Shown one piece after another: positions 10,687 to 64,000 of a stretch of DNA of 64,000 nt. Made by a program: the position numbers and the translations under genes. Source of the stretch: Patescibacteria group bacterium (GTDB taxonomy: Bacteria > Patescibacteriota > UBA1384 > DATEAH01); assembly GCA_035288465.1 (NCBI GenBank), contig DATEAH010000009.1, positions 11,951 to 75,950 on the forward strand, given 5' to 3'. Within the stretch, counting starts at the first letter, position 1; every line of letters begins with the position of its first letter. Under the pieces are notes generated by a model. That model did not search any database and was not told the origin of the DNA. It saw nothing but the letters and a program-made list of their open reading frames with translations.

Positions 10687-10744
10687 TTGAGTCACCTCTT
10701 GGGGCGTGGTAGAGATTAAATTGTGTATGTGCTTCTGGTTCAAG

Positions 10745-11958: not shown

Positions 11959-12365
11959 TTATTGAACCTCCAGTGGTGCTATATTCCCTCCGCTTAAGCG
12001 CGAGGGTTTGTAACCTTGGAGCATGATCACGTCGAGTATGTAAACGAGTTAGTACGACAAATCTAACTCGAGACTTTTCCAGACCTTGGATGTACAAGTT
12101 GCGATTAAGTCAAGTTGTGAAGGAACCGAGTTGATCTGGCAAACAGCGTGAAGCTGAAATAATACCATTACAACATATGCGTATATTATAGCAAATAATA
12201 ATTTATTTGTCAAGAGTTATAGGAATAAAATCTCAGAAAATAATTTAGGCTCATAAAAAACGAACAGGGTGGGCAGAAAATCTCGGGTTGATAGCTGAAA
12301 GCTATCAAGCTTTGAAATTCTACCCACCCTTGGGTAAATTGTCAGATCCGACCGAAGTCGAATCA

Positions 12366-13028: not shown

Positions 13029-13702
13029 AACCTCCTGAGGTATTCCCGGATGCCGATGTACGCGCAGCCCAAGATTACGAAAATCAGGGCTACGATGGCA
13101 ACGAGTAGCCAAGGGCTGTCTCCTTGCCCATCGGGTGCGGACGGACCAGTCATTGTCTTGGATGCGAGGACCTGACGGTCTCGTGCCTCGACAAACGACT
13201 TTGAGACGACGCCGGATTTGATAGCCCATTCCGCGATGGTCTCAATGACCACGTGGCGCGATAGGCCATCTTGTCCGGCTGGTCCGCGAGGTCCGCGCGA
13301 ACCGCGACGTCCCAGACCCGAAGGTCCAGGTACGCCATCTTTGCCAGCAGGACCAGGAGCACCGTTTTGGCCGTTTAGACCAGGCGCCCCGTCCTTAACG
13401 GCAGGCCCCGGGATTCCCTGCGGACCCGGAGGTCCGGCAAGTCCGCCAGTTGACACCACCACTGGGGGTGGTGTTGTGTCCGGTGAGACCGGAGGCGCTA
13501 GAGTTTCCGGAGTCGAATTGACCTCCGGTTGCTCCACTGGAATCTCCACTGGGATGGTCGGCTGGTTGGGCTGATCAGTGCGCCCAAGGACTTTTACGTC
13601 CCGGGCGTCACCTTCGGCCCTTGCAACTTGCAACGAGGCCACCGCTGCCAGGAGGCAAGCGGCGACCCAGAGAACGAACTTGTGACGGTTCATCGCCGTC
13701 AC
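13022..13702 (-). CDS. secreted collagen-like (Gly-X-Y) repeat protein with C-terminal TM anchor, high GC
   Basis: Signal peptide [29 protein letters not shown]; [11 protein letters not shown]…[25 protein letters not shown] triplets; C-terminal hydrophobic helix. Confidence 0.55.
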
Positions 13703-13865
13703 CTCCTATCCGGCAGCGGTGACCTCTCTGGTGGTCATCGTGCCTAAAACCGTCCCAATACACCCACAAAGGGTTTAATCAGGATCGGTCGAGAGCTATG
13801 TTAAAGTGCCTGAGGCACTTGGAATCTGAGAAATCTGAGAGTAAGCCTCGAATTCCTATATTATA

Positions 13866-25170: not shown

Positions 25171-26751
25171 TTAATTTTTATTTAGGCTAGAAAGCAGGCT
25201 TTTGCCGGTCATTTCCGCCGGAATCGCTAAGCCTAAAAGTTCTAAAATTGTGGGTGCAATATCGGCCAAATTATAATCAGAACCCATCATTGCCGAGATT
25301 ATTGAGCCTCGATCAACTTGTTGCATCAGACTATGTTGGTCAAGGCGGTTGTCTGGATTAATTAAAATAAATGGCACCGGATTAGTGGTATGAAAATTTT
25401 TTAATTGACCGGTAAAACTGCTAATTTTGCCCATTTCTTCGGCTAAACCATGATCAGCAGTCAGAATCGCACAACCGCCCACGCTAAGGGTTTTTTCGAC
25501 AATTTCCGCAATTGCAATATCAACATATTTAACCGCCGTTTCCACAACTTGGGAATTTCCGGTATGTCCGCAAATATCAACATTTGGTAAATTCGTCACA
25601 ATTAGATTAAAATTGCCCTGCACAATTTTAGAAACTACCATATTTTTAACGTCATATAACCTTAATTGTGGTGATTTGTTAATATCATGGCTGGTGTATG
25701 ATTTGAGAATAAAATTTTCTTCACCTGTGAATTTTGAATGTGAATAGCCGTTAAAATCATATATTAAATTCTTTTCTTTGTAGCTTTCCGTGATTTTAGC
25801 AATTTTTAAATTATTTTTAGAAATCACCTCGCTAAGGGTAGGGCTAACTTTGGGGGTGGTAAAAATCGGTTGAGTTTTGAGATGGGAATAATCAGTCAGG
25901 GTATAAATATTTTTATTATAATTAGAAATAATATTGATATATTCGGAAATATCTCGGCCATTAAAATTAAAAAATATGATCGAATCGTCAGGTTTGATGC
26001 GACTCAATTCAGGATCAAAATTTAACATTAAAGTTGGCGAAAAATCAGCATCACCAACATGATTCTGATAAGAATTTTTAATCGCCTGCAGAGGATTGGG
26101 GGAAGTCGGAATTTTATTTGTTTCAAAAAGAGCTCGAGCCGAGATTCTAATTTGTCGCAAATCAGCATCGCCATCCTCAATCCAGCCTCGTCCAGTTAAG
26201 GTGGCAATTTTTCCCAAATTTTGGCTTTCCAGCGTTTTTTCTAACCAATCAATCGTGCCAATGCCGGCATTGTGATTGGTGTCAACGCCATCCAAAATCC
26301 CGTGCAAATAAACGTTTTTTACCCCTTTATTTTTAAAATAATTAAGTAAGGCCTGTAAATGAGTTAATTCAGCCACCGAATGAGCTTTGGTAATCATGCC
26401 CACCAAATGTAAATTTGTTTTGGCATTAAAAATATTTAAAGCAATTTTGTGCAAAATTTGGTTTTGATAAAATTCACCGCTTTTAATCTGGCTGGAGATA
26501 ATCCCCGAAATCGGCAAAACTAATCGTCCCGCACCAATTATAGTATGGCAGATTTCAGAATCAGGGTATGTGTCTCGATCACTCGAGACCATCGCTAATG
26601 ATTTTAATGATTGATGGGGATAATTTCGCCAATAATAATTAAAATTTCTCGGCTGTCCCGAAGCAATAAAATTACCGCTCCAAGAAGGAGTTAAGCCCCA
26701 GCCGTCTAAAATAATTAGCACAATTGGTTTATAAAGAGATTTTTGATTCAT
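25171..26751 (-). CDS. divergent paralog of 2,3-bisphosphoglycerate-independent phosphoglycerate mutase (iPGM/alkaline-phosphatase superfamily)
   Basis: ILDGWGL N-terminus and metal-binding DHGL…, CGHTGN conserved, but canonical MGNSEVGH replaced by DSEICHTIIG. Confidence 0.6.
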   Translation of the reverse strand: MNQKSLYKPIVLIILDGWGLTPSWSGNFIASGQPRNFNYYWRNYPHQSLKSLAMVSSDRDTYPDSEICHTIIGAGRLVLPISGIISSQIKSGEFYQNQILHKIALNIFNAKTNLHLVGMITKAHSVAELTHLQALLNYFKNKGVKNVYLHGILDGVDTNHNAGIGTIDWLEKTLESQNLGKIATLTGRGWIEDGDADLRQIRISARALFETNKIPTSPNPLQAIKNSYQNHVGDADFSPTLMLNFDPELSRIKPDDSIIFFNFNGRDISEYINIISNYNKNIYTLTDYSHLKTQPIFTTPKVSPTLSEVISKNNLKIAKITESYKEKNLIYDFNGYSHSKFTGEENFILKSYTSHDINKSPQLRLYDVKNMVVSKIVQGNFNLIVTNLPNVDICGHTGNSQVVETAVKYVDIAIAEIVEKTLSVGGCAILTADHGLAEEMGKISSFTGQLKNFHTTNPVPFILINPDNRLDQHSLMQQVDRGSIISAMMGSDYNLADIAPTILELLGLAIPAEMTGKSLLSSLNKN

Positions 26752-26760
26752 AAAATTAAA

Positions 26761-28329
26761 TTATGTCGTAGTTGGTAAACCATGATAATGATTTTGGGCA
26801 AATAAACTATTTTCCATTTCTTGAGGTTTTGGAATATCTAAAATTTCCAAAATTGTGGGCGCAATATTTGCCAAACGCCCAGGATGAAGGTTTTGATATT
26901 TTCTCACATCGTCAATGATAATAAAGGGGACATCAGAAGTGCTGTGCTCGGTTTCAGGTTCTGAAGTTTTTGGGTTTAACATTTGTTCGGCATTGCCATG
27001 GTCGCCGGTGATGATCGTGACCCCTTTATGGCGCTTCATTTCATTCACAAAACTGCCCACGATTTTATCTAAATAAGTAACTGCCGCAATAGTTGCCTGC
27101 ATGTTGCCGGTGTGGCCAACCATATCCGCATTGGCAAAATTAATTACCATAAAATCAAATTTATTTAAATTTTCAATTGCTGTTTGGGCAATTTCGGCCG
27201 CAGACATTTCGGGTTGAAGATCGTAAGTAGATATTTTTTGGGAGGGGATTAGAATTCTTTTTTCTCCAGGAAATGGGTTTTCCCTGCCACCATTAAAAAA
27301 ATAAGTAATATGGGCGTATTTTTCAGTTTCTGCCAAATGCAGTTGCGTGAGATTATTGTTCGATAAAATTTCCGCTAAACAATTTTTAACTTCAGCCGGG
27401 ACAGGAAAGGCTACTTTTATATCTAATGAATTCTCGTATTCATAAGGCACTAAGCTGGCAAAATAACACTTTTTAAGTTTTTTGGTATGAAATTCTTTAA
27501 ATTTGGGATCGCAAATGCTCCGCACGATTTGTCTCATTCGATCAGCACGAAAATTAAAAAATAAAACTGCATCGCCATCTTTAATTTGACCGGCTGGTTG
27601 ATTTTTAGCTTCAATACTGGTCGGTTCAATAAATTCATCAGTTTTACCAGCAGCATAATTTGCGCTCACCGCTTTTCGGGCATCGCTTGACACCGCGCTT
27701 TTGCCTTCGACAATCACTCGATATTCTCTTTCGGTTCTTTCCCATCTTTTATCGCGATCCATCGCATAATATCTGCCACCAATACTCGCAATTCTGCCCA
27801 CCTTAGTTTGGTTAATTTTATCAGTCAATTTGGCAATAAACGAAATTGCGGCGGTCGTTGGAGTGTCGCGACCATCGCAAAAAGCATGAATAAATACTGA
27901 ATCTAATTCTTTTTGCTGGGCATAATCCAATAATGAAAACAAATGATTAATATGAGAATGGACACCGCCATCCGAAACTAAACCCACGAAATGTAAAGAA
28001 GAGTTATGTTTTTTCGTCCAATCAAAAGCGGCATTAATGACGGGATTTTTAAAAAAACTCCCATCGCTAATTGATTGGTTAATTCTCGAAATGTCCTGTT
28101 TTAAAACCCGACCTGTGCCAATACTCAAATGGCCAACTTCGGAATTGCCCATTTCCTGGCCCGGTAAGCCGACATTATCACCCGAAGCTTTTAATTGAGT
28201 ATGAGGGTAAATAGACCAATAACGGTTCATGTTTGAAGTTTCAGCCAATGAAATTGCATTACCACCCCAAGAAGGGCTGATTCCCCAGCCATCCAAAATT
28301 ACCAAAGCAAATGGTGATATTTTCTTCAT
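26761..28329 (-). CDS. gpmI: 2,3-bisphosphoglycerate-independent phosphoglycerate mutase
   Basis: VILDGWGI, MGNSEVGHLSIGTGR, GDHGN, MVGHTGN motifs. Confidence 0.85.
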   Translation of the reverse strand: MKKISPFALVILDGWGISPSWGGNAISLAETSNMNRYWSIYPHTQLKASGDNVGLPGQEMGNSEVGHLSIGTGRVLKQDISRINQSISDGSFFKNPVINAAFDWTKKHNSSLHFVGLVSDGGVHSHINHLFSLLDYAQQKELDSVFIHAFCDGRDTPTTAAISFIAKLTDKINQTKVGRIASIGGRYYAMDRDKRWERTEREYRVIVEGKSAVSSDARKAVSANYAAGKTDEFIEPTSIEAKNQPAGQIKDGDAVLFFNFRADRMRQIVRSICDPKFKEFHTKKLKKCYFASLVPYEYENSLDIKVAFPVPAEVKNCLAEILSNNNLTQLHLAETEKYAHITYFFNGGRENPFPGEKRILIPSQKISTYDLQPEMSAAEIAQTAIENLNKFDFMVINFANADMVGHTGNMQATIAAVTYLDKIVGSFVNEMKRHKGVTIITGDHGNAEQMLNPKTSEPETEHSTSDVPFIIIDDVRKYQNLHPGRLANIAPTILEILDIPKPQEMENSLFAQNHYHGLPTTT

Positions 28330-28347
28330 AATAAAATCTCATTAAAT

Positions 28348-29652
28348 TTAATATATGGTGCTTTCACTTTTAGAATTATGTCCAAAAACCGCTTTTGCAC
28401 CCAAGGCTTCTTCGATACGAATAATTTGATTATATTTGGCGGTTCGTTCAGACCGTGATAAACTTCCAGATTTAATACCAAACGCACCCACCCCCACCGC
28501 TAAATCAGCAATAAATGTGTCTTCAGTCTCACCCGAGCGATGTGAAATAATTATCGTATAACCTGATTGTTGCGCTAATTTAACCGTTTTAATCGTTTCC
28601 GACAAGGTTCCCACCTGATTAGGTTTAATAATAATCGCGTTGCCGGCTTGATTTTGAATCCCGAGATTCAATCTTTCAATATTGGTCACAAAAATATCAT
28701 CACCCACAATTTTGATATTTGTGCCCAGCAAAGTGGTTAATTTGGTCCAGCCTGCCATATCATCATCTGCCAAACCATCCTCAATGCTATAAATTGGGTA
28801 TTTGTCCGCTAGGGATTTTAAATATTCAATCATTTGGTCGGTTGATAAAACCTTATTTTCTTTTTTAAGCGTATATTGACCGGATTGATTCATTATTTGA
28901 GAGGCGGCGACATCCAAGCCAACAAAAACATCTTTTCCGGGAGTAAAGCCAGCGCTGGTAATTGCCTCAACAATTGCCGCAATCGCTTTTTCGTTTTGGT
29001 CAAAAGAGGGAGAATAGCCACCCTCATCGCCAACATTCGTTGAAACATTTTTTGATTTTAATTGTTTGCCTAAAGCATGATATACTTCAGAACCCCATCT
29101 TACTGCTTCTTTAAAGCTGTCTGCACCCATGGGAATAATCATAAATTCTTGAATATCTAAATTGTAACCCGCGTGAATGCCGCCATTAATGACATTCATA
29201 AAGGGCACCGGCATATGATATGATTCAGGTTGTGGTCGAGTCAAGCGAGTTAAATATTGGTATAAAGGGTATCGATAAGCGATTGCTCCAGCTCGAGCAC
29301 AAGCTAAAGAGGCGCCTAATATTGCATTTGCACCTAATTTGGCCTTGTTGGCAGTATTATCTAAATAAATTAAGATGCGATCAATTTCAGTCTGATTGGC
29401 TAAATCTTTGCCCACAAGATTTTTTTGAATTACAGTTTCCACATTTTCAACCGCTTTTAAAACTCCTTTACCGCCAAACCTTTTTGGATCGCTATCCCTT
29501 AATTCCAAAGCCTCAAATTGTCCCACCGAGGCTCCAGATGGGACCGAAGAGCGGTCAAAAAAACCATCATCAGTAATCACATCAACTTCTACCGTGGGAT
29601 CACCGCGTGAGTCTAATATCTCACGGGCAATTAATTTCGCAATTTTTGACAT
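28348..29652 (-). CDS. eno: enolase
   Basis: AREILDSRGDPTVEVDV N-terminus, SHRSGETEDTFIADLAV active-site region; start at MSKIAK after GGTGGAG RBS. Confidence 0.9.
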   Translation of the reverse strand: MSKIAKLIAREILDSRGDPTVEVDVITDDGFFDRSSVPSGASVGQFEALELRDSDPKRFGGKGVLKAVENVETVIQKNLVGKDLANQTEIDRILIYLDNTANKAKLGANAILGASLACARAGAIAYRYPLYQYLTRLTRPQPESYHMPVPFMNVINGGIHAGYNLDIQEFMIIPMGADSFKEAVRWGSEVYHALGKQLKSKNVSTNVGDEGGYSPSFDQNEKAIAAIVEAITSAGFTPGKDVFVGLDVAASQIMNQSGQYTLKKENKVLSTDQMIEYLKSLADKYPIYSIEDGLADDDMAGWTKLTTLLGTNIKIVGDDIFVTNIERLNLGIQNQAGNAIIIKPNQVGTLSETIKTVKLAQQSGYTIIISHRSGETEDTFIADLAVGVGAFGIKSGSLSRSERTAKYNQIIRIEEALGAKAVFGHNSKSESTIY

Positions 29653-29693
29653 TTCTCCACCCCCTTTACGATAGGTCAATAAAATCTTTGAGC

Positions 29694-31794: not shown

Positions 31795-32472
31795 ATGATA
31801 AAATCAATGAAATTTACATTTTTAGCCCAAGAAAATTTAAAAAATCTTTTCAAAAACGTCCTCAAATTTGCGGTTTTCTTTTTAATTATCTTTGCCATTA
31901 TGTTTACACTTTTAAATTGGCCAGCCGTGAAAATTAATGTTAGCTATTATTGGGGAAAAATATTTCACCAAAATAATTCCCAAAAAACAGAACTTACGAC
32001 CTTACCAAATATTAATAATTCCAAACAGCCAACCACCACCGAACTTAAACTCGGAAATAACCGGATTGTGATAAATAAAATAAATATAAACGTTCCTATT
32101 GTTTGGAATGTGCCTGAAAAAGATTTTATTGCCAGTTTAAAAAATGGCGTGGCTCATTATCAAGGCACCGCCAAACCCGGCGATAAAGGCAACATTTTTA
32201 TCGCTGGCCACTCTTCAAATTATTGGTGGGAACAAGGTCCTTATAGCGCCATTTTTTCGATGATCAATAAATTAGATCTCGGCGACGAGGTGATCATTAC
32301 CTATAATAATAAAGCTTATTATTATCGCGTCCAAGAGAAATTTACAGTTAAGCCATCTCAAGTTGAAGTCATGATGCCAACCAAAGAACCAACTTTAACC
32401 TTAATGACTTGCACGCCAATTGGCACGAGTTTAAATCGTTTAATTGTTCGAGCCGATCAGGTAATTCCTTAA
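31795..32472 (+). CDS. sortase-family transpeptidase
   Basis: TLMTCTP catalytic Cys motif and upstream IAGHSS His; N-terminal TM anchor. Confidence 0.7.
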   Translation: MIKSMKFTFLAQENLKNLFKNVLKFAVFFLIIFAIMFTLLNWPAVKINVSYYWGKIFHQNNSQKTELTTLPNINNSKQPTTTELKLGNNRIVINKININVPIVWNVPEKDFIASLKNGVAHYQGTAKPGDKGNIFIAGHSSNYWWEQGPYSAIFSMINKLDLGDEVIITYNNKAYYYRVQEKFTVKPSQVEVMMPTKEPTLTLMTCTPIGTSLNRLIVRADQVIP

Positions 32473-38648: not shown

Positions 38649-40028
38649 TTGGCGGAAGCAATCATCATGATAATTTTAGTAATTTTCGCCTTAGCCTTAA
38701 TTATTTTTTCATTTCTAAAACCCAAATGGGCGTTTTATTTGTTATTAGCTTTAATTCCCTTCCATGCTTTTTTATTCACCACTTTCAATGAATTATTAAA
38801 TTTAACTGGCCGCAGTTCGCAAATTCTGGCTTCTTGGAAAGAAATTATTATGTTCGGTTTGATTTTGCGCATTTTATGGCAAATTGTTAAGACTCGAAAA
38901 CCACCCTTTAAAATTTTATTTGTCGACAAAATTATTGCTTTATTGTTTTTACTCGGCATTTCCACCATGATCTTTTTCTTGATTCCGCTCAAATCTGCTT
39001 TTTGGGGATTTCGATTTGATTTTGAGATGTTTTTAATTTATTTCCTAGCTCGCTCCTATGTTTGGAAAAAACCTGAAATTCAAAAATCAGTCCTAATAAT
39101 TTTATCATCAGCCATGATTGTGGCTCTTTTTGCATTGTTGCAAGCCTGGTTTCTGCCGGCCGATTTTCTGACTCATTTCGGTTATTCATCAGGAGTAAAT
39201 TGGCAACAAGCGATCGCTTTGCCGGCTTATCAAACCATTGGCGCCTCAAATGTGGTGCGCATGCAATCATTTTTAGCTGGTCCAAATCAATTAGGCTCGT
39301 ATTTATTAATCCCAATTTTTATCAGCCTGGTGTATTTAATTTCTGCAAAAAGTAACAAATTAAAATTACTGTTAACTGTTTACTGTTTACTGTTAATTTT
39401 TTCTTTATTTTACACCTATTCCCGTTCCGCATGGTTGGCATTTGCCGCAGGTTTGGTGGTTTTAATTTTAATAAAAATCAAACAGCGTTACCCACTCAAA
39501 ACATTTTTAATCACCATGTCTGCAATTTTTGTAGTTTTAATAGGATTGTTGATTTTTATCCAATATCAACCCTTTGGTATTAAATTTGCCGATGTATATA
39601 TTAATCATCAAGGCTCAAATTTGGAAAGATTTAGCCGGCTTCAAGCCTCTTTTGAAACTATTATTAAAACACCGTGGGGTTTGGGAATCGGACAAGCTGG
39701 GCAAGCTCAACTTCATTCCATGAGTGCTACGGCTTTAATTTCAGAAAATTGGTATTTGCAAATTGGCGTTGAATTGGGAATTTTGGGTTTGATAATTTAT
39801 TTGCTCGTTATCTACCACTTTCTTAAAAATTTATGGCAAACCTTAAAATTTTTAACTGGAAAATTTGGCCACGATCTTAGTCTGGCGGTATTTTCAGGAT
39901 TTATCGTTCTTTCTTTGCACGCGATGTTTTTACACACTTGGTCTGATATTTCCACCGCTTTAACCTTTTGGTTTTTGGTCGGCTTGATTTTGACACAGAC
40001 ATCTACAAAATTACAAAAAAGTACATAA
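38649..40028 (+). CDS. O-antigen ligase/polymerase-like polytopic membrane protein
   Basis: ~10-12 TM helices with a large periplasmic loop; context with GT2 and TagA genes. Confidence 0.55.
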   Translation: MAEAIIMIILVIFALALIIFSFLKPKWAFYLLLALIPFHAFLFTTFNELLNLTGRSSQILASWKEIIMFGLILRILWQIVKTRKPPFKILFVDKIIALLFLLGISTMIFFLIPLKSAFWGFRFDFEMFLIYFLARSYVWKKPEIQKSVLIILSSAMIVALFALLQAWFLPADFLTHFGYSSGVNWQQAIALPAYQTIGASNVVRMQSFLAGPNQLGSYLLIPIFISLVYLISAKSNKLKLLLTVYCLLLIFSLFYTYSRSAWLAFAAGLVVLILIKIKQRYPLKTFLITMSAIFVVLIGLLIFIQYQPFGIKFADVYINHQGSNLERFSRLQASFETIIKTPWGLGIGQAGQAQLHSMSATALISENWYLQIGVELGILGLIIYLLVIYHFLKNLWQTLKFLTGKFGHDLSLAVFSGFIVLSLHAMFLHTWSDISTALTFWFLVGLILTQTSTKLQKST

Positions 40029-54251: not shown

Positions 54252-54328
54252 AGGCTGAGTTTATAATGTAGAATTTATCTGCTGAATTCCAATTATTTCA
54301 TGAATTAAAAAGAGAGGGAGGGGTTATA

Positions 54329-57300
54329 ATGCCCTTTGAGATTCAACCAAGTTTTATCTTGATAATTTTGGCATTTTTAGGTATTTTTGTTTTTTGGTAT
54401 CCAAAAACAAGAGTTCTAATTATAAAATATTCTAAATTATTTTGGAAAATTATCTTAATTTGTCTAAATAATCTTTCAAAATTGTATAAAATAATAAGTA
54501 TTTATTGGGAAAAATACATTTTTGTCTATTTCCGAACACGAGAAAAAGAGCAAATCCGTGGACTGACAAAAATTGCAATTATTCTCATTATTTTTTCCTT
54601 TATTCTCAATTCATTTGGCCTTGAACCCGACAGTCCCCAAAAAGCAGTCGCCGGCTATCAATGGACGCCTTCGGGGGGAAGTGTTATTACCGGGAGTGAA
54701 TATAATACCCAAGATGCAATTGCCAACACGCCTTCATATCGGGCATTAATGTCTAGCGATGATGTCCGCTGGCTGACAAAATATGATCCTGCCGCAGGTT
54801 TAGATAAACGGACCTATATTGATGGGGTTCAGCTTCAGGGCGCTAACAAAATGTTTATCACTTATGAAGGTTACGCCAGTGATGCCGCCGGAAATTATAC
54901 GGTTGAGATTTATGATAACACTGATTTTGTTTGGCGGACTTTAAATTGGCGCGGCACTGCTTTTACTAATACCAGTGACTCAACTTATACTTTTGAAATC
55001 TATAATGGTTTTTGGCAATCAGGCGGAAATCCGGTTAATACGCCCTTGTCTCGTTTTGTGACCGGAGATGCCAATAAGAGAGTCTCTATTCGAGTTTATT
55101 CGGCCGTAACTGGCGGCAGAATTCATTATTGGGACCGGCTGCAAGTTGAAGTTGGCATTGATCCGGTTTATTACACAAACTCTTTAACTAAATTAAATGG
55201 CTGGACAGGGGCAATTACCAATGATTATACCTGGACTAATTATGCCGATGACCAAAGAATGGTTGCCGCAAATCAAGCCGGAACGCCTTTGGATTTTTAT
55301 CTTTCATACACCGGAATCCAAACATACCCTAGCGCTAATACTATCTTTGTTGATTTTCAAGGCTCAGTTTCAAACGCGGCCCTAACTTATCAGCTTCAAA
55401 TTTATAATTTTACCGGTTTAAGCTGGGAAAATTTAAACACCACCCTGCTTGCCAATACTACTGAAACAAGTTATTATTTTGCTAAAAATAATGTCACACT
55501 TGCAGATTATATTTCTGCTAATGAAGCCAGAATTAGGATTTATACCGCTACTGGCAATACCTACACCTTAAGCGCAGACCGGGTTTATATCACTGTCGGC
55601 TCAACTAATACTGACCAAGGTTTGTGTCAGGTTTCTTTTGGCACAGAAGCTGGCGGGACAAATTGTTCAAATACTCGAACGATTGATACTTCAAGCGCCG
55701 AGAGTACTTGGCAGCAGACCACAGCGACTACCGCCGCCGCTGGTTATTACCCGGGAGATTACGCTGGAACCTGGGGAACTAATTATTCGGCGTCTGCTAA
55801 TCTTTCGGTGCCAATTACCATTCCAGACAGTACCGCGGTGACTGGGATTAAATACACGGCTAGATTTCGTTCAAATGTGACCACCAACACGATGATGCCA
55901 AGCCTAAAAGATATGTCTGGGATTAATACCTCTGTGGTCGGGACAGGCTATGCCGCACCCGGGGGTTGGGTTGATGTTTCAGCTTCAAATGCATTAACGA
56001 CTTATTCCACTTTAGAACCAGCCGCTTATACTCTTTCAACTTCATCAGAAGATTTTATTAATACTGAAAGCGATCTTGCGAATATACGCATGCGAACCTC
56101 AGCCAGCACTGCTACCGGAAGCGTAACGAGGGACTGGGATTTTGCTTTAATTGCGATTCGATGGCTTGCTGATGACACTGTCGCGGCCGATAATCCCCAA
56201 TATGTAGCCACATCTGGGTCTCTCCAAACCGGGACAGCGGTTGCAGTTGGCGCGACAAATACCGCATCATATTCCGGCACATTAAATTCTGAAAATTATT
56301 ACTGGCAAAACCAAAATTCAGCTTCTGGTTTGGATGTTCGGGTCAACATCGATGGTGTTAAACTCAACAATGCCAACAAAATGATTATTACTTATGAAGG
56401 CATGGTTTCAAACGCGGCTTTAGTATATTATGTGCAAATCTATGATAATACCAACTCTTTATGGCGAACCTTAAATGACCGAGGAGCAGCCCTCACCAGT
56501 ATTACGGAATCAAGCTATTATTTCTCGATCTTTAATGGTTTCTGGGGAGCAGACACTCCCTTATCAAACTTTATCACCAGTGATGCCAACAAACGGGTTC
56601 AACTAAGAATCTATTCTGAATATAAGGGTACTGCCTATACTCAATCTATAGACCGACTTCAACTTGAAGTAGCCACTGACCCAATTTACTGGGCTAAAGA
56701 CCAGACAGTTTTAGCGGGTGGAGATGGGGCAGTGACTAGTACCGGAACTAATGCCAGAGCCTTTGATATTACTAAAGATTCCTCTTATACGTATGCAGTA
56801 GGATATTGCGGAAATGATTGGTGCATAGAAAAAAGAAGAATTTCTGACGGAAGTTTAGTCAATGATTTTGGCAATAATGGTTTGGTTATTGGTACAATAT
56901 CGAGCAATAATGCGACTGCGCTTGCGATTGACGCAACTTATATGTATATTGTCGGGAATACTGGTGGATTTCCAAGTAATTTTTATTACGAAAAAAGAAA
57001 CCTTATTGATGGTAATCTAGATTTAGGTTTTGGGACTAACGGTGTTATTACCGGTGATCCCGATAGTAATATGGCTACAAGTATTGTCATTGATAATAGT
57101 AATATGTATGTGATTGGATACGACGATTCAAATAATTTACGCATTGAAAAAAGATCATTAACTAATGGCACATTAGATGCAGGTTTTGGTACCAATGGTG
57201 TGATCACTGGCGATCCATCAAGCAATATCGCTGAAGATATAGCCATAGATAATGAGTTTATGTATGTGGTAGGAGCTGATGACACTCCGGACTGGCGAAT

Positions 57301-60300
57301 CGAGAAACGTTATTTATCTGACGGCGACCCGGATGTAACTTTTGGCATTAATGGGGTGAAAACTAGTGACGCCGCCAGTAAATATGCTTTTGCAATTGCG
57401 ATTGACGCGACTCAAATGTATGTGGTGGGTCAAGATGAAACGCCGGATATTCGTATTGAAAATAGATTGCTTTCTGATGGCAGTTTGGATTTGACTTTTG
57501 GTTTAAATGGGGTGAAAACTAGCGACGCCGCAAGTGTTGTCGCCCAAGATATTGCCATTGACGACCAATATATGTATTTGACAGGGTCCAACACTACCCC
57601 GGACTGGCGAACTGAAAAACGCCTCTTATCTGATGGCAGTTATGATTTAGGTTTTGGTACTAACGGTGTTGCGACTAGTGCCTCAGCGAGTGACTACGCT
57701 TTTGGTATCGTGATTGATGCAAATGATATGTACATCGCCGGTAGTGAATACGCAGCCGATTGGCAGTGGCGGGTTGAAAAAAGAAGTTTATCTGACAGCT
57801 CTTTAAATACAATTTATGGAAGTCTTAATAATAATTACAAATTTACTCATCCGGCGGCTGGCAGCGCCATCTCTACTGGCGGTTCAGATGACCAAAGGAT
57901 GACTTTTGCCAATCCTTCAGGTGCCTCTTTTGATTATTATCTCACCTTTGGCAATGTGACTAAATACACTGGTGCGAATGCGATTCTGGTCTATTATGAA
58001 GGCAACACCTCTACTGCCAGTTTAACCTATAAAATTAAAATCTATAATTTTACCACTCCAGGCTGGGAAGATTTATCTAGCACTGTTTTTGCTAATACTT
58101 CAGATACTGCATATCAATTTGCCAAAGCTCCCATTGCCAATCTTGATGATTACATCTCTGATGGCAATATCAGGATTGGTTTTTACACCAATACCACTCA
58201 AGCTGGTACTTTTTCTGTTGATTACGTTTATGCCACCCTGGGTAGCGTGATTTCCGATGCTGGCAATTCTGAATTAACTTTTGGCGCCACCAATGGCGGC
58301 TCTTCATCATTAAATAGCCAATCCATAGATACAAGTTCAACCTCGCCTTCTACCTGGCAGATAAATACTTCAAATACCGGTGCAAATCCTTATGCTTCAG
58401 ATTGGGCAGGACAATATAGTGTCAATCAGCAAGCCACCGCTTTAATTGATTTTTCAACTACTTTAGGGAATAATACCCCCACCACTGGTATCAGATATGC
58501 TTTTCGGATGTTAACTGCTTCCACCAGTTTGACTTGGCAAGGGTATCAACAAGATTATTCGGGATTAATCGGCACTGTTGGCGGTTGGTTAGCAGCTGGT
58601 ACAACCAATAGTTCCGATTCAACATATACATATACCGAAGGCTGGAATGGCACCACTTTTAGAAATAATGAAAATTATCTCAATACTTTCGAAAATACCT
58701 TGAATTTAAAATTAAAACCGACTGCCAGTACCCGAGGTACCCAGTTAACCACCAATTGGGATTTTGCTTTTGCCTCTTTGCGTTGGTATGAAAATTCAGC
58801 CAACGCCCATTATAATTTTCAACTCACCCCAACCAATAGCAGTATTACTTTAGGTTCAGATATCGATCCTCAAGATGCGGTGCAAAATGTTGGTTCTTGG
58901 CGGGCCGCCTTAGCTTCAGATGATAATAGATGGGTAATTAAAAATGACCCTACCGCCGGACTTGATGCTAGAATCAGCCTTGATAATATTGACTTAAACT
59001 CCGGCAACAAAATGATGATTACTTATGAAGGCTCAGTCTCATATGCCTCAGCTTATTATTTTGTCCAAATTTATGACAATGTAAGTTCGGTTTGGCGAAC
59101 TTTAAATGACCGAGAAGTAGCTTTAAATAATACCACCGAAACTAGTCCATATTATTTTTCAATTTTCAACGGTTACTGGAATGATGGCGGGGGTTCTGTT
59201 AACGCGCCTTTGAGTAATTTTATCACCAACGATGCCAATAAACGGGTTCAGATTAGATTTTATTCGACGACGAACATTGTTGGATTTACCTTAGCAATAG
59301 ACCGTGTGCAGGCCGAAGTCGCGACTGATCCGGTTTATTGGCCAAGTAATTTTAATTTATCAAGCGGCAGTGATGGGATTATGGATGGCGTTGTCGCTAG
59401 TGATAGCATTCGCGCTATGGCGAAGGATACCAGCTATATGTATGTGGTAGGTAATGATAGCACTCCTGACTGGCGAGTTGAAAAAAGAAGTTTAATAAGC
59501 GGCAGTTTGGATACTGGTTTTGGCACCAATGGCGTAGCCACCGGCGCTTCGGCAAGCAACTGGGCTTATGCCATTGCTATTGATGCTAACTTTATGTACG
59601 TTGCAGGGGGTGATAGTACTCCTGATTTGCGCATTGAAAAACGCAGATTGTCTGATGGCAGTTTAGATGTAGGTTTTGGCACCAATGGCGTGGTTACTGG
59701 AGCATCGTCTAGTAATGGAATTTCGACCATTGCCATTGATTCTACCTATATGTATGTGGCTGGGTGGGATAGCACTCCTAATTGGCGCATTGAAAAACGC
59801 AGCTTGTCTAATGGCAGTTTAGATTTAGGTTTTGGCAATAATGGCGTCATTACCAGCGATTCGGATGGCGATTATGCTCAAGCTATTGCCATTGACACTA
59901 ATTTTATGTATGTGGCGGGAATAACCGGCGCTCCTAATTGGCGCATTGAAAAACGCAGCTTATCCGACGGCAGTTTAGATTTAGGTTTTGGCACCAATGG
60001 CGTAATCGCTTGCGACCCAGCAAGCAATGATCTGGGGGGGATTGCTGTAGCTGCCGGTTTTATGTATATAGCAGGTTTTGATGACACTTTTAATTGGCGC
60101 ATTGAAAAACGCAACTTATCCGACGGTACTCCGGATAATGGTTTTGGCACCAACGGTGTCGTCACCGGCGACCCGGCGAGCAACAGGGCTTATGCCATTG
60201 CCATTGATGCTACCTATATGTATGTAGCGGGACGCGATGAAAATACTAAATGGCGCATTGAAAAACGCAACTTATCCGACGGTACTCCGGATAATGTTTT

Positions 60301-63300
60301 TGGCACCAACGGTGTCGTCACCGGCGATGTAACCAGTTTTGTTGCTTTTGCCATTACTATTGATGCCAGCAAAATATATACGGCAGGTTCTGATTGGGTG
60401 GGTAACTGGCACATTGACAAAAGAGCTCTTTCTGACGGTGCCTTAGATACATCTTCTGGCTCAGGTTTTGGCAATGTTGATTATAATACTTACAAAGCCA
60501 CTCATCCAATTGCCACGACAGCAATTTCTTCGGGCGGTTCGGATGATCAATACCTAGCTGTTCAGAATATCTCTGGTCAATCGTTTGACTTTTATCTGAC
60601 TTTCGGCAATGTTGCCACCTATACCGGTGCTAATGCCCTTTTTGTTTATTATGAAGGTAAAACCTCAGCGGCAGGTTTAACCTACAAAATTAAAATCTAT
60701 AATTTTACTACCCCCGGCTGGGAGGATTTATCAGCCACGGTTTTTGCTAACACCACTGATACAGCCTACCAGTTTGCCAAGGCTCCGATTGCAAATCTCG
60801 ATGACTACATTTCGGGCGGGAATATTCGGATTGGTTTTTACACACCTTCCACCACAGCTGGGAGCTTTAGTATTGATTATCTTTATCTGATGCCGGGTTC
60901 AGTGATTGACAATGCCGCTAATTCGGAAATATCTTTTGGCACAGAAGCGGGCGGTACCGCCGCCACCGGGACGCAAAGCTTGGATACAAGCTTAGGAGCA
61001 GGCGCCGAAAATTATTGGGGAGTCACCACCGCGACAACTGCCACTAATCCTTATTTTGGCGACTGGTCAGGAACCTACAGCACAAATGATAACGGCGCCG
61101 CTAATATCTCCTTTCCGGTGACAATGCCCGCCAACGCTAAAGTGACTAACACCAGGTCTGTGGCAAGGTATTTGTCTAATTCAGCCGCAAACACGATTGA
61201 ATACGCTTTTAAAGATTATGGCGGAGCTTTGGGAACAACCGGCGGTTGGGTTGATCCGGGCGCTGTCAGCAATAACTCTTCCACTTATTCTATAAATTAC
61301 TATCGGCAAACCACAAATCCCGAAGATTTTATCAATACCTCAACTAACAAAATGAACATGAAAATCAGAACCACCGCCAGCACTGATGCTAATTTGGTCA
61401 CTTACCGCTGGGATTTTGCTTTCGTCACTTTTGCTTGGACAACCGAAGAAGATCACCCTTCGGGTTCTCATCAATTCACCGGTACAGGCGGTTCTTTAGA
61501 AGTTGGGATAGGCATGGCGTTGTCATCAACTAATTATGGCAGCTGGCGCGGGACTTTAGCGTCTGATAATGGTTACTGGCAAAACCAAAATTCAGCTTCG
61601 GGTTTAGATGTGCGAGTCAGCATCGATGGTGTTAAACTCAACAATGCCAACAAAATGATTATCACTTATGAGGGCATGGTTTCCAACGCGGCCTTAACTT
61701 ATTATGTCCAAATATATGATAATACCGCTGGTTTCTGGCGGACCCTAAATGATCGAGGCGCCCTATTAACCAGCACCACCGAATCAACTTATTATTTCTC
61801 CATCTTCGACGGTTTTTGGGGTTCAAGTACTCCCTTATCAAACTTTATCACCAGTGATGCCAACAAACGAGTTCAATTAAGAATCTATTCCGAATATACT
61901 GGCACGGCCTACACCCAATCTGTTGACCGATTCCAACTTGAGGTTGCCACGGATCCTGTTTATTGGGCTAAAGACCAGACAGTCTTGGCGGGTGGAGATG
62001 GGGTAATTACTAGTGCTGCTGATGGCTATGAAGCCACTGATGTTGCCAAAGATGATACCTATATGTATGTGTTTGGAAACAATGAATCTTTTGATTGGCG
62101 GGTTGAAAAAAGAAAGTTATCCGATGGCACCCTAGATGTTGGTTTTGGTAATAATGGTGTTGTTTCAAGCCCGGGAGCAAGTAATTATGCTGAAGCCATT
62201 ACTATTGACTCGACTTATATGTATATCGTAGGTAGTAATTGGACAACTGAGGACAAAATACGAGTTGAAAAACGTCGTTTGTCTGATGGTAGCTTAGATA
62301 TGAGCTTCGGCACAAATGGTGTAATTTTAGGTGATTCAAGTAGTTCTTATGCTTACGCCATTGATGTTGACTCAACTTATATGTACATAGTTGGAACTGA
62401 TGACACTCCTGACTGGCGAATTGAGAAACGTTATTTATCTGATGGCAGCTTAGATTTAAGTTTTGGGAATAATGGTATTATCACTTGCGATCCTTTAAGT
62501 TATGCAGCATTAGCAATTATTATTGATAATAATTTTATGTATATTACCGGGAGAGATGAAACGGCAGATTGGCGCATTGAAAAAAGGGCTCTTTCAAATG
62601 GTGATTTAGATTTAGGTTTTGGCGATCAAGGTGTAATCACCGGTGACCCGGCAGGTTTCGCGGCTAATAATCTTGCCATTAATGACACGTATATGTATGT
62701 CGTTGGAAATATCCCAACCCCTGATTGGCGCATTGAAAAAAGAGCTTTACTTGATGGTAGTTTGGACTTAAGTTTTGGCAATAATGGTGTTATTTCAGGT
62801 GATCCATCCAGTAATACTCCATATGATATTACTATTGATTCAAATTATATGTATGTTACCGGAGATCAATGGGCGGCTGGATATGACTGGCGAATTGAAA
62901 AACGAGCCCTCTCAGACGGTGCTCCAGATTTAGGTTTTGGCACCAACGGGGTGATCACCGGTGATGTAGCCACATATCGGTCTTATGGCATTGTTAAAGA
63001 CTCAAATGATATGTATGTGGTTGGGGGTGACGGTTCTGATTGGCGAATTGAAAAACGAGCCCTCTCAAATGGTGCCCTAAATACTATCTTTGGCAGTCTT
63101 AATAATAATTACAAATTTACCCACCCGGCGGCTGGCAGCGCTATTTCCACTGGCGGTTCAGATGATCAGAAGTTGGCTTATGTCAATCCTTCAGGTGCCT
63201 CTTTTGATTATTATTTAACTTTTGGCAATGTCGCTACTTATACTGGCGCAAATGCAATTTTGGTCTATTACGAGGGTATGACTTCCACCGCTAGCCTTAC

Positions 63301-64000
63301 CTACAAACTTAAGATATATAATTTTACTAATTTGAACTGGGAAGATTTATCCTCAACTGCTCTTGTCAATACGGCAGATACTGCCTATCAGTTTGCCAAA
63401 GCGCCCATTGCAAACCTCGATGATTATATCCAAGGCGGCAATATCCGGATTGGTTTTTATACCTCTACCACCCAAGCCGGCACTTTTTCTGTCGATTATA
63501 TTTATGCCACCCTGGGCAGTGTGATTTCTGATGCGGGGAATGCCCAAATCTCTTTTGGCTCAACTGACGGTTCAAGCGCTTTAAACACCCAAAACCTCGA
63601 TGCTTCTTTAGCCAGTCCTGCTGTTTATGGCGTAAATACTGCCACCACTGCCGCCAGTTTTTACGCGAATGATTATGCACCAGGTCTATATAATGTTGCT
63701 CAAAATGGGGCCGCGAATATCAATTTTAACATCACACCCACTAATAATACTTTTGTGACCGGTATTCGATATGCGGCGCGTTATCGTTCTAATTCAACTT
63801 TACTGACAGTCCAGCCTAATGTTTTTGATTACAGCGGTTTACTTGGGGTATCAGGCGGCTGGTTAGCGGTCGGCACCACCAATGCCCTTACTACCTATAC
63901 TTATTCTGAAGGTTTTCATAATGCCACGAATAATAACGCTTGGGGTTTTAATAACGATCTTTCTAATATGCGTTTGAGAACTACCGCCAGTACTTTAGGC
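54329..64000 (+). CDS. giant N-terminally membrane-anchored surface repeat protein (>3,224 aa, 3' end beyond window)
   Basis: GGGAGGGG RBS then ATG 54329; hand translation stop-free to window end (9,672 nt = 3,224 codons); two N-terminal hydrophobic helices then repeated A/B/C modules and delta-60-like ~45-aa repeats. Confidence 0.75.
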   Translation, partial: MPFEIQPSFILIILAFLGIFVFWYPKTRVLIIKYSKLFWKIILICLNNLSKLYKIISIYWEKYIFVYFRTREKEQIRGLTKIAIILIIFSFILNSFGLEPDSPQKAVAGYQWTPSGGSVITGSEYNTQDAIANTPSYRALMSSDDVRWLTKYDPAAGLDKRTYIDGVQLQGANKMFITYEGYASDAAGNYTVEIYDNTDFVWRTLNWRGTAFTNTSDSTYTFEIYNGFWQSGGNPVNTPLSRFVTGDANKRVSIRVYSAVTGGRIHYWDRLQVEVGIDPVYYTNSLTKLNGWTGAITNDYTWTNYADDQRMVAANQAGTPLDFYLSYTGIQTYPSANTIFVDFQGSVSNAALTYQLQIYNFTGLSWENLNTTLLANTTETSYYFAKNNVTLADYISANEARIRIYTATGNTYTLSADRVYITVGSTNTDQGLCQVSFGTEAGGTNCSNTRTIDTSSAESTWQQTTATTAAAGYYPGDYAGTWGTNYSASANLSVPITIPDSTAVTGIKYTARFRSNVTTNTMMPSLKDMSGINTSVVGTGYAAPGGWVDVSASNALTTYSTLEPAAYTLSTSSEDFINTESDLANIRMRTSASTATGSVTRDWDFALIAIRWLADDTVAADNPQYVATSGSLQTGTAVAVGATNTASYSGTLNSENYYWQNQNSASGLDVRVNIDGVKLNNANKMIITYEGMVSNAALVYYVQIYDNTNSLWRTLNDRGAALTSITESSYYFSIFNGFWGADTPLSNFITSDANKRVQLRIYSEYKGTAYTQSIDRLQLEVATDPIYWAKDQTVLAGGDGAVTSTGTNARAFDITKDSSYTYAVGYCGNDWCIEKRRISDGSLVNDFGNNGLVIGTISSNNATALAIDATYMYIVGNTGGFPSNFYYEKRNLIDGNLDLGFGTNGVITGDPDSNMATSIVIDNSNMYVIGYDDSNNLRIEKRSLTNGTLDAGFGTNGVITGDPSSNIAEDIAIDNEFMYVVGADDTPDWRIEKRYLSDGDPDVTFGINGVKTSDAASKYAFAIAIDATQMYVVGQDETPDIRIENRLLSDGSLDLTFGLNGVKTSDAASVVAQDIAIDDQYMYLTGSNTTPDWRTEKRLLSDGSYDLGFGTNGVATSASASDYAFGIVIDANDMYIAGSEYAADWQWRVEKRSLSDSSLNTIYGSLNNNYKFTHPAAGSAISTGGSDDQRMTFANPSGASFDYYLTFGNVTKYTGANAILVYYEGNTSTASLTYKIKIYNFTTPGWEDLSSTVFANTSDTAYQFAKAPIANLDDYISDGNIRIGFYTNTTQAGTFSVDYVYATLGSVISDAGNSELTFGATNGGSSSLNSQSIDTSSTSPSTWQINTSNTGANPYASDWAGQYSVNQQATALIDFSTTLGNNTPTTGIRYAFRMLTASTSLTWQGYQQDYSGLIGTVGGWLAAGTTNSSDSTYTYTEGWNGTTFRNNENYLNTFENTLNLKLKPTASTRGTQLTTNWDFAFASLRWYENSANAHYNFQLTPTNSSITLGSDIDPQDAVQNVGSWRAALASDDNRWVIKNDPTAGLDARISLDNIDLNSGNKMMITYEGSVSYASAYYFVQIYDNVSSVWRTLNDREVALNNTTETSPYYFSIFNGYWNDGGGSVNAPLSNFITNDANKRVQIRFYSTTNIVGFTLAIDRVQAEVATDPVYWPSNFNLSSGSDGIMDGVVASDSIRAMAKDTSYMYVVGNDSTPDWRVEKRSLISGSLDTGFGTNGVATGASASNWAYAIAIDANFMYVAGGDSTPDLRIEKRRLSDGSLDVGFGTNGVVTGASSSNGISTIAIDSTYMYVAGWDSTPNWRIEKRSLSNGSLDLGFGNNGVITSDSDGDYAQAIAIDTNFMYVAGITGAPNWRIEKRSLSDGSLDLGFGTNGVIACDPASNDLGGIAVAAGFMYIAGFDDTFNWRIEKRNLSDGTPDNGFGTNGVVTGDPASNRAYAIAIDATYMYVAGRDENTKWRIEKRNLSDGTPDNVFGTNGVVTGDVTSFVAFAITIDASKIYTAGSDWVGNWHIDKRALSDGALDTSSGSGFGNVDYNTYKATHPIATTAISSGGSDDQYLAVQNISGQSFDFYLTFGNVATYTGANALFVYYEGKTSAAGLTYKIKIYNFTTPGWEDLSATVFANTTDTAYQFAKAPIANLDDYISGGNIRIGFYTPSTTAGSFSIDYLYLMPGSVIDNAANSEISFGTEAGGTAATGTQSLDTSLGAGAENYWGVTTATTATNPYFGDWSGTYSTNDNGAANISFPVTMPANAKVTNTRSVARYLSNSAANTIEYAFKDYGGALGTTGGWVDPGAVSNNSSTYSINYYRQTTNPEDFINTSTNKMNMKIRTTASTDANLVTYRWDFAFVTFAWTTEEDHPSGSHQFTGTGGSLEVGIGMALSSTNYGSWRGTLASDNGYWQNQNSASGLDVRVSIDGVKLNNANKMIITYEGMVSNAALTYYVQIYDNTAGFWRTLNDRGALLTSTTESTYYFSIFDGFWGSSTPLSNFITSDANKRVQLRIYSEYTGTAYTQSVDRFQLEVATDPVYWAKDQTVLAGGDGVITSAADGYEATDVAKDDTYMYVFGNNESFDWRVEKRKLSDGTLDVGFGNNGVVSSPGASNYAEAITIDSTYMYIVGSNWTTEDKIRVEKRRLSDGSLDMSFGTNGVILGDSSSSYAYAIDVDSTYMYIVGTDDTPDWRIEKRYLSDGSLDLSFGNNGIITCDPLSYAALAIIIDNNFMYITGRDETADWRIEKRALSNGDLDLGFGDQGVITGDPAGFAANNLAINDTYMYVVGNIPTPDWRIEKRALLDGSLDLSFGNNGVISGDPSSNTPYDITIDSNYMYVTGDQWAAGYDWRIEKRALSDGAPDLGFGTNGVITGDVATYRSYGIVKDSNDMYVVGGDGSDWRIEKRALSNGALNTIFGSLNNNYKFTHPAAGSAISTGGSDDQKLAYVNPSGASFDYYLTFGNVATYTGANAILVYYEGMTSTASLTYKLKIYNFTNLNWEDLSSTALVNTADTAYQFAKAPIANLDDYIQGGNIRIGFYTSTTQAGTFSVDYIYATLGSVISDAGNAQISFGSTDGSSALNTQNLDASLASPAVYGVNTATTAASFYANDYAPGLYNVAQNGAANINFNITPTNNTFVTGIRYAARYRSNSTLLTVQPNVFDYSGLLGVSGGWLAVGTTNALTTYTYSEGFHNATNNNAWGFNNDLSNMRLRTTASTLG
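56300..64000 (+). repeat. tandem ~2.64-kb intragenic supermodules (x3+ within the giant gene), ~88-90% DNA identity between copies
   Basis: e.g. ACTGGCAAAACCAAAATTCAGCTTC…GATGGTGTTAAACTCAACAATGCCAACAAAATGATTAT at 56.30k and 61.57k; CTTAATAATAATTACAAATTTAC…GGCGGTTCAGATGA at 57.82k and 63.10k. Confidence 0.7.

Follow-up and report, generated by a model that had tools for sequence, protein, structure and literature searches.

Results

The giant gene and its complete product

The 64,000-nt stretch of contig DATEAH010000009.1 (assembly GCA_035288465.1) that was analysed here, called the window below, belongs to a Patescibacteria metagenome-assembled genome (MAG) and ends inside a gene for a giant modular protein. 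Translation of positions 54329-64000 of the forward strand gave 3,224 stop-free codons in one frame. The nearest in-frame stop 5' of this open reading frame (ORF) was located at 54269, and ATG 54329 is the first start codon past that stop. The initial annotation of the window had described a single uninterrupted frame from this ATG to the window end, preceded by a ribosome-binding site, and had pointed to a stop codon or frameshift as what could undo this description. Machine translation of the 3,224 codons contained neither, and the purine-rich sequence GAGGGAGGGG stands just upstream of the start codon (Table 1).

When the last 307 residues encoded in the window were searched against genome and metagenome contigs, no match extending the gene was obtained. 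The same locus was found in many assemblies by exact look-up of the neighbouring DUF1614 protein, and the full length was also obtained from cluster membership. A 116,608-bp contig was found to be identical to the window, and the gene was called there with a product of 3,826 aa (P0285 = HLC39156.1, 'hypothetical protein, Patescibacteria group bacterium'), of which the window holds the first 84%. The full ORF, which the initial annotation had proposed to seek in longer contigs, was thus recovered.

A further doubt raised at the outset was that the repeats might be artefacts of assembly, i.e., that a shorter gene had been mis-assembled with a false repeat number or order. Contig ends do interrupt the gene in five assemblies (L002-L006, at window positions 55703, 55966, 57901, 58041 and 60365), and two of the five breaks fall in module B1. 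However, the internal repeats were only 60-82% identical as DNA and the longest exact repeat was 46 nt, compared with k=141, which makes collapse or expansion by the assembler very unlikely. Five independent partial assemblies, reaching 60365, were base-identical to the window within the gene; their sole mismatches lay at the contig ends of L003 and L006, 5' of the gene. The identical 3,826-aa product was called on eight contigs from ENA and JGI samples, one of them a JGI assembly, and the C modules described below matched the four trios of a relative, P0126, one to one. The gene is real and complete, and the probability that it arose by mis-assembly is minute. Because contigs break inside the gene in five assemblies, gene catalogues derived from metagenomes will mostly hold fragments of such genes.

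Modules, propellers and their predicted folds

Module starts were determined by self-BLAST and four-way alignment. The protein was found to contain four ordered A-B-C trios, that is, twelve domains of 145-185 aa. The starts of the three module types given in the initial annotation were reproduced within ~100 nt by self-comparison, whereas its module length of 130-150 aa was too short. Modules A and B are related to each other (30-47% identity), and C is weakly related to A. Supermodules 1-3 (aa 624-1486, 1497-2370 and 2381 onward) have the form A-[repeat array]-B-C. The arrays had been correctly placed between A and B; their number of repeats, given as 6-7, is exactly 7 in each, the first trio has none, and the period is 52 aa (156 nt) instead of ~45 aa.

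Table 1. Features of the giant gene and of the genes directly following it. Positions are those of the window unless a locus is named.
Feature	Position	Strand	Remarks
Shine-Dalgarno-like purine-rich GAGGGAGGGG	54314-54323	+	5 nt 5' of start codon; read off sequence
Giant ORF, codons 1-3224 of 3826	54329-64000	+	gene runs 1,806 nt past window end
Hydrophobic helix 1, aa 7-24	54347-54400	+	Kyte-Doolittle 15-residue mean up to 2.75
Hydrophobic helix 2, aa 79-96	54563-54616	+	Kyte-Doolittle mean up to 2.69
Supermodule 0 (aa 112-612), no propeller: A0 54662-55177, B0 55178-55612, C0 55613-56164	54662-56164	+	self-BLAST, four-way alignment
Module A1	56198-56698	+	80-87% identical to A3; 52-53% to A0 and A2
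Propeller 1, seven predicted 52-aa delta-60/DUF5122-type blades	56717-57823	+	156-nt period, blade register; TIGR02608 E=1.1e-10
Modules B1 57806-58258, C1 58259-58786	57806-58786	+	self-comparison
Module A2	58817-59350	+	self-comparison
Propeller 2, seven predicted 52-aa blades	59366-60463	+	156-nt period, blade register; TIGR02608 E=9e-13
Modules B2 60464-60913, C2 60914-61438	60464-61438	+	self-comparison
Module A3	61469-61972	+	self-comparison
Propeller 3, seven predicted 52-aa blades	61991-63079	+	156-nt period, blade register; TIGR02608 E=3.5e-11
Modules B3 63080-63532, C3 63533 onward (cut by window end)	63080-64000	+	self-comparison
~420 aa non-repeat Ig-like-looking tail, then Pam-type C-terminal domain, aa 3666-3826 (161 aa)	outside window, after C3	+	P0285, locus L007
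300-aa chaperone-like gene	L007 21503-22405		starts 22 nt past giant gene; beyond window
415-aa transmembrane-anchored gene	directly after 300-aa gene, beyond window		signal peptide, FnIII-like segment, prealbumin-like domain, C-terminal transmembrane helix

The repeats had been likened to the delta-60 type, and this proved right in substance. The model TIGR02608 (delta_60_rpt) matched the whole protein with E=6.2e-15, although at 54.8 bits compared with a cutoff of 76.5 bits, and the single arrays with E values of 1e-10 to 1e-13; PF17164 (DUF5122) matched faintly (E=0.044). With one supermodule as the query, 341 proteins were retrieved, nearly all of them matched over the propeller part alone at 40-49% identity, and several carried PF17164 or the label 'delta-60 repeat'. 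The propeller part was 46-47% identical to P0003 and P0005, which carry PF17164 and one of which is annotated by JGI as 'delta-60 repeat protein'. The arrays are therefore best described as predicted seven-bladed propellers of the delta-60/DUF5122 type: the repeats are homologous to annotated members of that family, but they score below both curated cutoffs, and each propeller interrupts a trio made up of domains of another kind. No function of the delta-60 repeat family was reported in the literature found, where the family is merely mentioned.

For the A, B and C modules, no sequence match was found in Pfam, NCBIfam or the PDB, and the A-B-C profile gave 0 matches at E<=10 against PDB sequences. 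Pfam matches to ACCA_BT, RIP, CS1 fimbrial and PriL, obtained with the whole protein and with single modules, were dismissed as chance noise. The AlphaFold2 (AF2) model of supermodule 0 was all-beta, with a predicted local distance difference test score (pLDDT) of 58.6 overall, ~64-86 for A, 70-90 for B and 40-65 for C. When this model was compared with the PDB by Foldseek, tandem CBM22, reelin repeats, carbohydrate-binding modules (CBMs) of GH101 and SGBP-B were matched with E values of 1e-8 to 1e-5; domain III of Cry toxins was also among the matches. In BFVD, the matches were phage tail-fibre, Dit and baseplate proteins with CBM-like inserts. The check for a lectin-like or CBM-like fold that had been suggested for one supermodule thus gave CBM-like jelly rolls, at fold level. 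This supports the view that A, B and C are lectin/CBM-like beta-jelly rolls, with no particular ligand implied. In the predicted model they share this fold with type B/C CBMs (CBM4, 16, 22, 29, 61 and others), but they belong to none of these families by sequence, the identities are 6-15%, and module C is poorly modelled.

Since the fold matches include SGBP-B and many enzyme-borne CBMs, the protein might be a scaffold for glycan capture or nutrient scavenging, whose modules would bind polysaccharide, free or from the environment, in the manner of Bacteroides surface glycan-binding proteins. However, no catalytic domain was found in the protein or in the neighbours scanned, and the gene logic described below is that of pilus and WxL adhesin clusters. 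By any domain detectable in its sequence the protein is not an enzyme, and the scavenging explanation appears improbable.

The A-B-C family

With a profile of the A-B-C trio, only six proteins were found in a word-indexed database, all from the candidate phyla radiation (CPR). A HMMER search of 1.84 billion representatives, clustered at 50%, yielded 257 members at E<=1e-3 and 101 at E<=1e-30. Local domain hidden Markov models (HMMs) showed that the order is always A-B-C across the family. Members usually have one or two trios, rarely four, and propellers are inserted at the A/B junction, the B/C junction or both. In 29 sequences (28 library representatives and the giant protein), the C-terminal domain (CTD) considered below was located at the exact C-terminus.

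A close relative, P0126 (2,480 aa), contains four trios and no propeller. Its C modules pair one to one with those of the giant protein, with identities of 72, 52, 58 and 57% on the diagonal. Therefore, the four trios were already in place when the two proteins diverged, and gain or loss of propellers came afterwards. By sequence, A-B-C is an undescribed three-domain family that has no Pfam or NCBIfam model, and the giant protein is an expanded, propeller-bearing extreme of the A-B-C/CTD family.

The C-terminal domain

Residues 3245-3826 are non-repeat, and three segments that look Ig (immunoglobulin)-like or beta-sandwich-like were read there from the sequence. No Pfam match was obtained with the tail segments; the first of them was also found in relatives from Moraniibacteria. 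The informative part of the locus, i.e., the CTD and the chaperone-like gene that follows it, lies past the window end and was therefore invisible to the initial annotation.

Pam pili are CPR-specific filaments that were described in 2026 (Troman et al., bioRxiv 10.64898/2026.03.03.709456). According to this description, they are assembled with the help of PapD/FimC-like chaperones that have a C-terminal transmembrane (TM) helix (PamC/D), capped by PamT, a tip protein consisting of the CTD only, and anchored by PamR, an FnIII protein with an N-terminal strand and a C-terminal TM helix; the donated linker is the most conserved region (bioRxiv 10.64898/2026.03.03.709456). How the pili contact the host is stated there to be unresolved, and no adhesin, lectin or link to WxL proteins is mentioned (bioRxiv 10.64898/2026.03.03.709456).

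The CTD of the giant protein, used alone, matched the NCBIfam model NF058581 (CPR_Pam_pilin_C) with E=8.9e-8, residues 8-158 being aligned with positions 2-146 of 148. It also matched PF14352 (DUF4402) at 27.7 bits (cutoff 25.2), over only the last ~36 model positions. When nine CTDs of the subtype found in the giant protein were compared by hhalign with 21 CTDs of the Pam type, among them that of a bona fide pilin (82 bits on NF058581), a probability of 97.5% and E=5e-12 over 152 columns were obtained. These profile comparisons indicate that the CTD is homologous to the CTD of CPR Pam pilins (PamA/B/E/T). It differs from them as a divergent subtype (32 bits on NF058581 compared with the 55-bit cutoff), and in the giant protein the place of the pilins' nine-strand N-terminal domain is taken by CBM-like trios, propellers and Ig-like-looking segments that together make up ~3,600 residues. 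A word-indexed homologue search with the CTD gave four matches. Searches of PDB sequences with the tail or with the Magasanikbacteria pilin described below gave chance matches only, and no Pam sequence was found among them.

Just before the CTD lies a conserved segment, SLSLNLDS in the giant protein and SLSFSIS in the bona fide pilin and most family members. Few parts of the CTD alignment are as well conserved as this S-L-x-hydrophobic-x-hydrophobic segment, and the Pam paper gives the donated linker as the most conserved region. The segment could be the first strand of the domain itself or a donor strand; in the latter case the protein would hold both donor strand and acceptor CTD and could therefore be incorporated repeatedly, by itself or within a Pam-type filament, as a polymerising giant pilin in which a decoration of ~3,600 residues takes the place of the nine-strand N-terminal domain. 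However, it is implausible on steric grounds that subunits of 3,826 aa could be packed with a rise of ~5 nm, and most of the related operons hold a single large CTD protein followed by pilins of ~360 aa, so that a tip or terminal role fits better. A polymerising subunit is hence regarded as quite unlikely.

A separate protein of 191 aa, P0290 (L012 8001-8576), consists of a signal peptide and only a CTD of the same subtype as that of the giant protein (34% identity). It resembles PamT in architecture and is encoded amid housekeeping genes, with no chaperone gene within 8 kb.

Genes that follow the giant gene

The product of the 300-aa gene that starts directly after the giant gene has a signal peptide, two beta-rich domains, a C-terminal TM helix and a basic tail. 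It matched PF06030 (WxLIP_PGBD) with E=5.8e-5 over positions 19-120 of 121, at 23.5 bits compared with a cutoff of 27.3. No NCBIfam match was found for it, DUF3324, the second WxLIP domain, was absent among the matches listed, and the chaperone profile gave chance matches only against PDB sequences. Its plan of a signal peptide, two beta domains and a C-terminal TM helix fits PamC/D as described, and the plan of the 415-aa protein (Table 1), whose mature N-terminal residues start with ADTQSLNMNVKVIDV, fits that of PamR. Both likenesses are of architecture.

Through its near-full-length, sub-threshold PF06030 match, the same 300-aa protein is reminiscent of the WxL (Csc) clusters of Firmicutes, which comprise a small WxL protein, a large WxL protein and WxLIP (DUF916-DUF3324-TM). 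For these clusters, strand insertion involving WxLIP is described, and docking of WxL on WxLIP has been proposed (PMC10599100). However, the CTD of the giant protein lacks the dual Trp-x-Leu motif, 0 of 20 CTDs matched the Pfam WxL family (PF13731) at E<=1, and the phylum is a different one. The giant protein is thus not a member of the WxL Pfam family; the resemblance is in how the system works.

Further downstream come an 86-aa GIY-YIG ORF and then a second giant gene (together L007 23745-31481, 1.9-9.7 kb past the window end). The public call of this second gene is 3,032 aa long, with a DUF5122 propeller (47 bits) and PKD and CarboxypepD_reg domains; the propeller is too diverged for the local propeller HMM and was detected by Pfam. 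A scan of the 64-kb window and the 10 kb downstream with local HMMs revealed no further gene for an A, B, C, propeller or CTD domain.

Synteny across CPR

In a Magasanikbacteria MAG, the order of genes was found to be an A-B-C-CTD protein (P0121), a bona fide Pam pilin, a homologue of the 300-aa protein (phmmer E ~1e-38) and TM-anchored proteins. On NF058581, the CTD of P0121 scored 50.6 bits and the adjoining pilin 82 bits. CPR restriction is shared with the Pam system, and a relative of the giant protein adjoins a bona fide Pam pilin; the giant gene's own locus differs in having no gene for a ~360-aa pilin. In two Moraniibacteria loci, an A-B-C protein is followed by two small paralogues of its tail and by a WxLIP-like/LysM protein.

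The Magasanikbacteria cluster continues 3' of the chaperone gene (L010 10431-14004) with a dockerin-like 304-aa protein, a cohesin-like TM-anchored 573-aa protein and a 306-aa paralogue of the latter. By sequence, this suggests a second type of surface attachment, of the cohesin-dockerin kind, in that locus.

When the chaperone alignment was scanned against 185,579 species genomes, 70 loci were obtained, almost all labelled CPR and many from Saccharibacteria. ORFs ending in the CTD were present in 60 of them, and all 123 CTD hits lay within 12 residues of the ORF end. Among the 62 loci informative in having at least 1 kb of upstream sequence, 52 had the end of a CTD ORF no more than 400 nt upstream of the chaperone relative, on the same strand. 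The arrangement of a CTD gene followed by the chaperone gene is near-universal and includes many large CTD proteins: 24 CTD carriers in the 70 loci are 500-2,394 aa long, the longest being an A/B-bearing protein of L085, and the giant protein (3,826 aa) exceeds them all. The usual operon encodes a large CTD protein, then one or more ~360-aa pilins, then the chaperone. With the CTD subtype of the giant protein, the large protein is followed by the chaperone directly, an order that also occurs in two other loci (Berkelbacteria and Magasanikiibacteriota). Homologues of the 415-aa protein were found after the chaperone gene in five other loci.

Several chaperone/CTD loci of the CPR type (L017, L019, L044, L062, L075 and L079) were binned as Rikenella, Polynucleobacter, Bdellovibrionales, Gammaproteobacteria or Bacteroidetes MAGs. 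Probably, CPR contigs were mis-binned with those of putative hosts or neighbours; if not, the loci point to transfer outside CPR.

The N-terminus and anchoring

The two N-terminal hydrophobic helices noted in the initial annotation were recovered by the Kyte-Doolittle method (Table 1), and a K/R-rich stretch separates them. Helix 2 could be a signal-anchor or the core of a signal peptide, as judged from the sequence; the label 'membrane-anchored' that had been given to the protein has hydropathy as its sole basis. The relatives have a single short N-terminal hydrophobic segment typical of signal peptides.

Directly before the first A module, a small-x-small motif (AVA, VQA, AKA, AEA, AIA or VWA) was observed in all relatives inspected. 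It is present in the giant protein at aa 105-111 (window 54641-54661) and in relatives P0121-P0128, often 10-40 residues from the hydrophobic segment, and may be a processing site.

Nowhere in the 3,826 aa, which end in ...FTATALLF, was the motif [LIV]PX[TSA]G found. Because it has no LPXTG motif, the giant protein is not a sortase substrate, and sortase anchoring was rejected. The initial annotation had argued for an elaborate surface from a nearby sortase, a PEGA protein and a glycan cluster. This argument did not hold: the genes in question lie 14-52 kb away, the motif is absent, and the genes immediately 5' of the giant gene have housekeeping roles (NusA, Clp ATPase, RelA/SpoT, HisRS, LexA and DUF1614).

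If the two helices formed an uncleaved membrane hairpin, the protein would be an N-terminally anchored fibril and its Pam-like domain a distal Ig-like cap or extra binding domain, with no donor-strand chemistry. The strength of the two hydrophobic segments, the K/R-rich loop between them and the lack of an adjoining canonical cleavage site are consistent with such a fibril, as are the absence of a pilin gene from the window and the 10 kb downstream and the failure of AF2 to produce the CTD groove. Against it stand the position of all 123 CTD hits at the extreme C-terminus of ORFs and the location of the CTD ORF directly 5' of the chaperone-like gene in 52 of the 62 informative loci, an arrangement that a passive cap would not need, together with the single, signal-peptide-like segment of the relatives. 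An N-terminally anchored fibril is therefore considered unlikely, though less so than the scavenging scaffold or the polymerising pilin.

Other features of the window

Genes that had been invoked as surface context are a sortase-like ORF with a TLMTC motif (31795-32472, ~22 kb from the giant gene), an ORF with one PEGA motif (1678-3096, up to 52 kb away) and an O-antigen-ligase-like Wzy_C protein (38649-40028, ~14 kb away).

A GC-rich island at 9400-13750 has a GC content of ~0.54, compared with 0.33-0.42 elsewhere in the window, and its ORFs have no Pfam match. One of them (13022-13702, minus strand, 226 aa) encodes a signal peptide, collagen-like G-X-Y repeats and a C-terminal TM helix, and another (10994-12097, minus strand, 367 aa) an acidic, Pro/Ala/Glu-rich protein. 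An RNA explanation for the island (9.5-13.7 kb) was rejected, as no Rfam match was found at E<=0.1. By its composition, the island looks horizontally acquired.

The leucyl-tRNA synthetase gene (13940-16780, minus strand) encodes an unusual fusion, with a NUDIX domain (PF00293, aa 393-513, E=6.5e-14) after the editing domain. Enolase and two tandem iPGM paralogues are encoded at 25171-29679 (minus strand), 25 kb from the giant gene. The same enolase/iPGM trio was found directly 5' of the A-B-C/Pam-pilin/chaperone cluster in the Magasanikbacteria MAG (L010 1-4465).

Discussion

It is proposed, with a probability of roughly 0.55, that the giant protein serves as an adhesin for glycans and is displayed through beta-strand complementation of its pilin-type tail, with its C-terminus proximal to the cell. 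The protein would be exported through Sec, and its incomplete Ig-like CTD would be held by beta-strand complementation from the membrane-anchored, chaperone-like 300-aa protein, following the logic of PapD/PamC-D or of WxLIP. It might then stay docked on that protein, as has been proposed for WxL and WxLIP in Firmicutes (PMC10599100). Alternatively, it might be passed on to one of two acceptors: the TM-anchored 415-aa FnIII protein, similar to PamR in architecture, whose N-terminal strand would receive it, or a Pam-type pilus, on which it would be a terminal adhesin similar to FimH/PapG. With the CTD held at a membrane-anchored partner, the C-terminus would be cell-proximal, and the several thousand residues that form the array of lectin-like modules and propellers would reach outward and bind glycans of the host envelope multivalently and with high avidity. 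The core of the initial annotation, which saw a giant modular surface protein of an episymbiont-type bacterium and a candidate for host attachment, is supported by the present analysis and by the origin of the window from a Patescibacteria MAG.

FimH and PapG combine an N-terminal lectin part with a C-terminal incomplete-Ig pilin domain, which is first held by a PapD-type chaperone and takes a strand from the next, more proximal subunit. The giant protein likewise has a lectin-like part and a pilin-type C-terminal domain. This is an analogy, also drawn for Pam in the Pam paper, and there are differences: the system of the giant protein has no usher or outer membrane, and twelve lectin-like domains and three propellers stand in place of one lectin domain. 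The published description of Pam pili (bioRxiv 10.64898/2026.03.03.709456) contains no adhesin or lectin-bearing subunit.

Several points weigh against the proposed reading as a glycan-binding adhesin displayed through its tail. The CBM-like assignment is at fold level, from a moderate model and at 6-15% identity. The CTD scored 32.3 bits on NF058581 against a curated cutoff of 55 bits, and its AF2 model, computed from a five-sequence alignment, had a pLDDT of 37, so that an incomplete-Ig groove is not visible from it. The identification of the 300-aa protein as a chaperone comes from a sub-threshold Pfam match, architecture and synteny, and no separate Pam pilin gene was found in the 64-kb window or the 10 kb downstream. 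The two strong N-terminal hydrophobic helices have no obvious signal-peptidase site beside them; if they held the N-terminus in the membrane, the protein would be oriented the other way round. Finally, host attachment is suggested by how members of the phylum live rather than by data from the organism itself.

Giant adhesins are expected in CPR in general, and both the propeller type and the jelly-roll fold are of known kinds. What is new is the A-B-C unit, its fusion to a Pam-type domain, the near-universal pairing of a CTD gene with a chaperone gene behind it, in which many large CTD proteins take part, the extreme size with propellers and the gene logic that parallels WxL clusters. It is tentatively suggested, as a possibility still short of a likely one, that A-B-C/CTD proteins are the missing host-recognition subunits of Pam-type pili and, at the same time, that the Pam and Firmicute WxL/WxLIP systems are two branches of one ancient, usher-less machinery for display by strand complementation in single-membrane bacteria. 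If so, a membrane-anchored protein with two Ig domains would hold or hand over proteins that end in a truncated Ig domain. In that case, no larger cargo of that machinery would be known than the 3,826-aa protein, a tip adhesin with twelve lectin-like modules and three propellers, and host range would be tuned through its variable propeller insertions.

The findings suggest a connection of Pam pili with Firmicute WxL clusters that can be tested, and related loci are carried by cultivable Saccharibacteria. Proteins with variable N-terminal parts and a Pam-type domain, encoded directly 5' of a chaperone-like gene, form a widespread class of candidates. How the ultrasmall CPR/Patescibacteria recognise and hold their hosts is largely unknown, and the giant protein is a concrete candidate for the means by which this grip on the host may be achieved.

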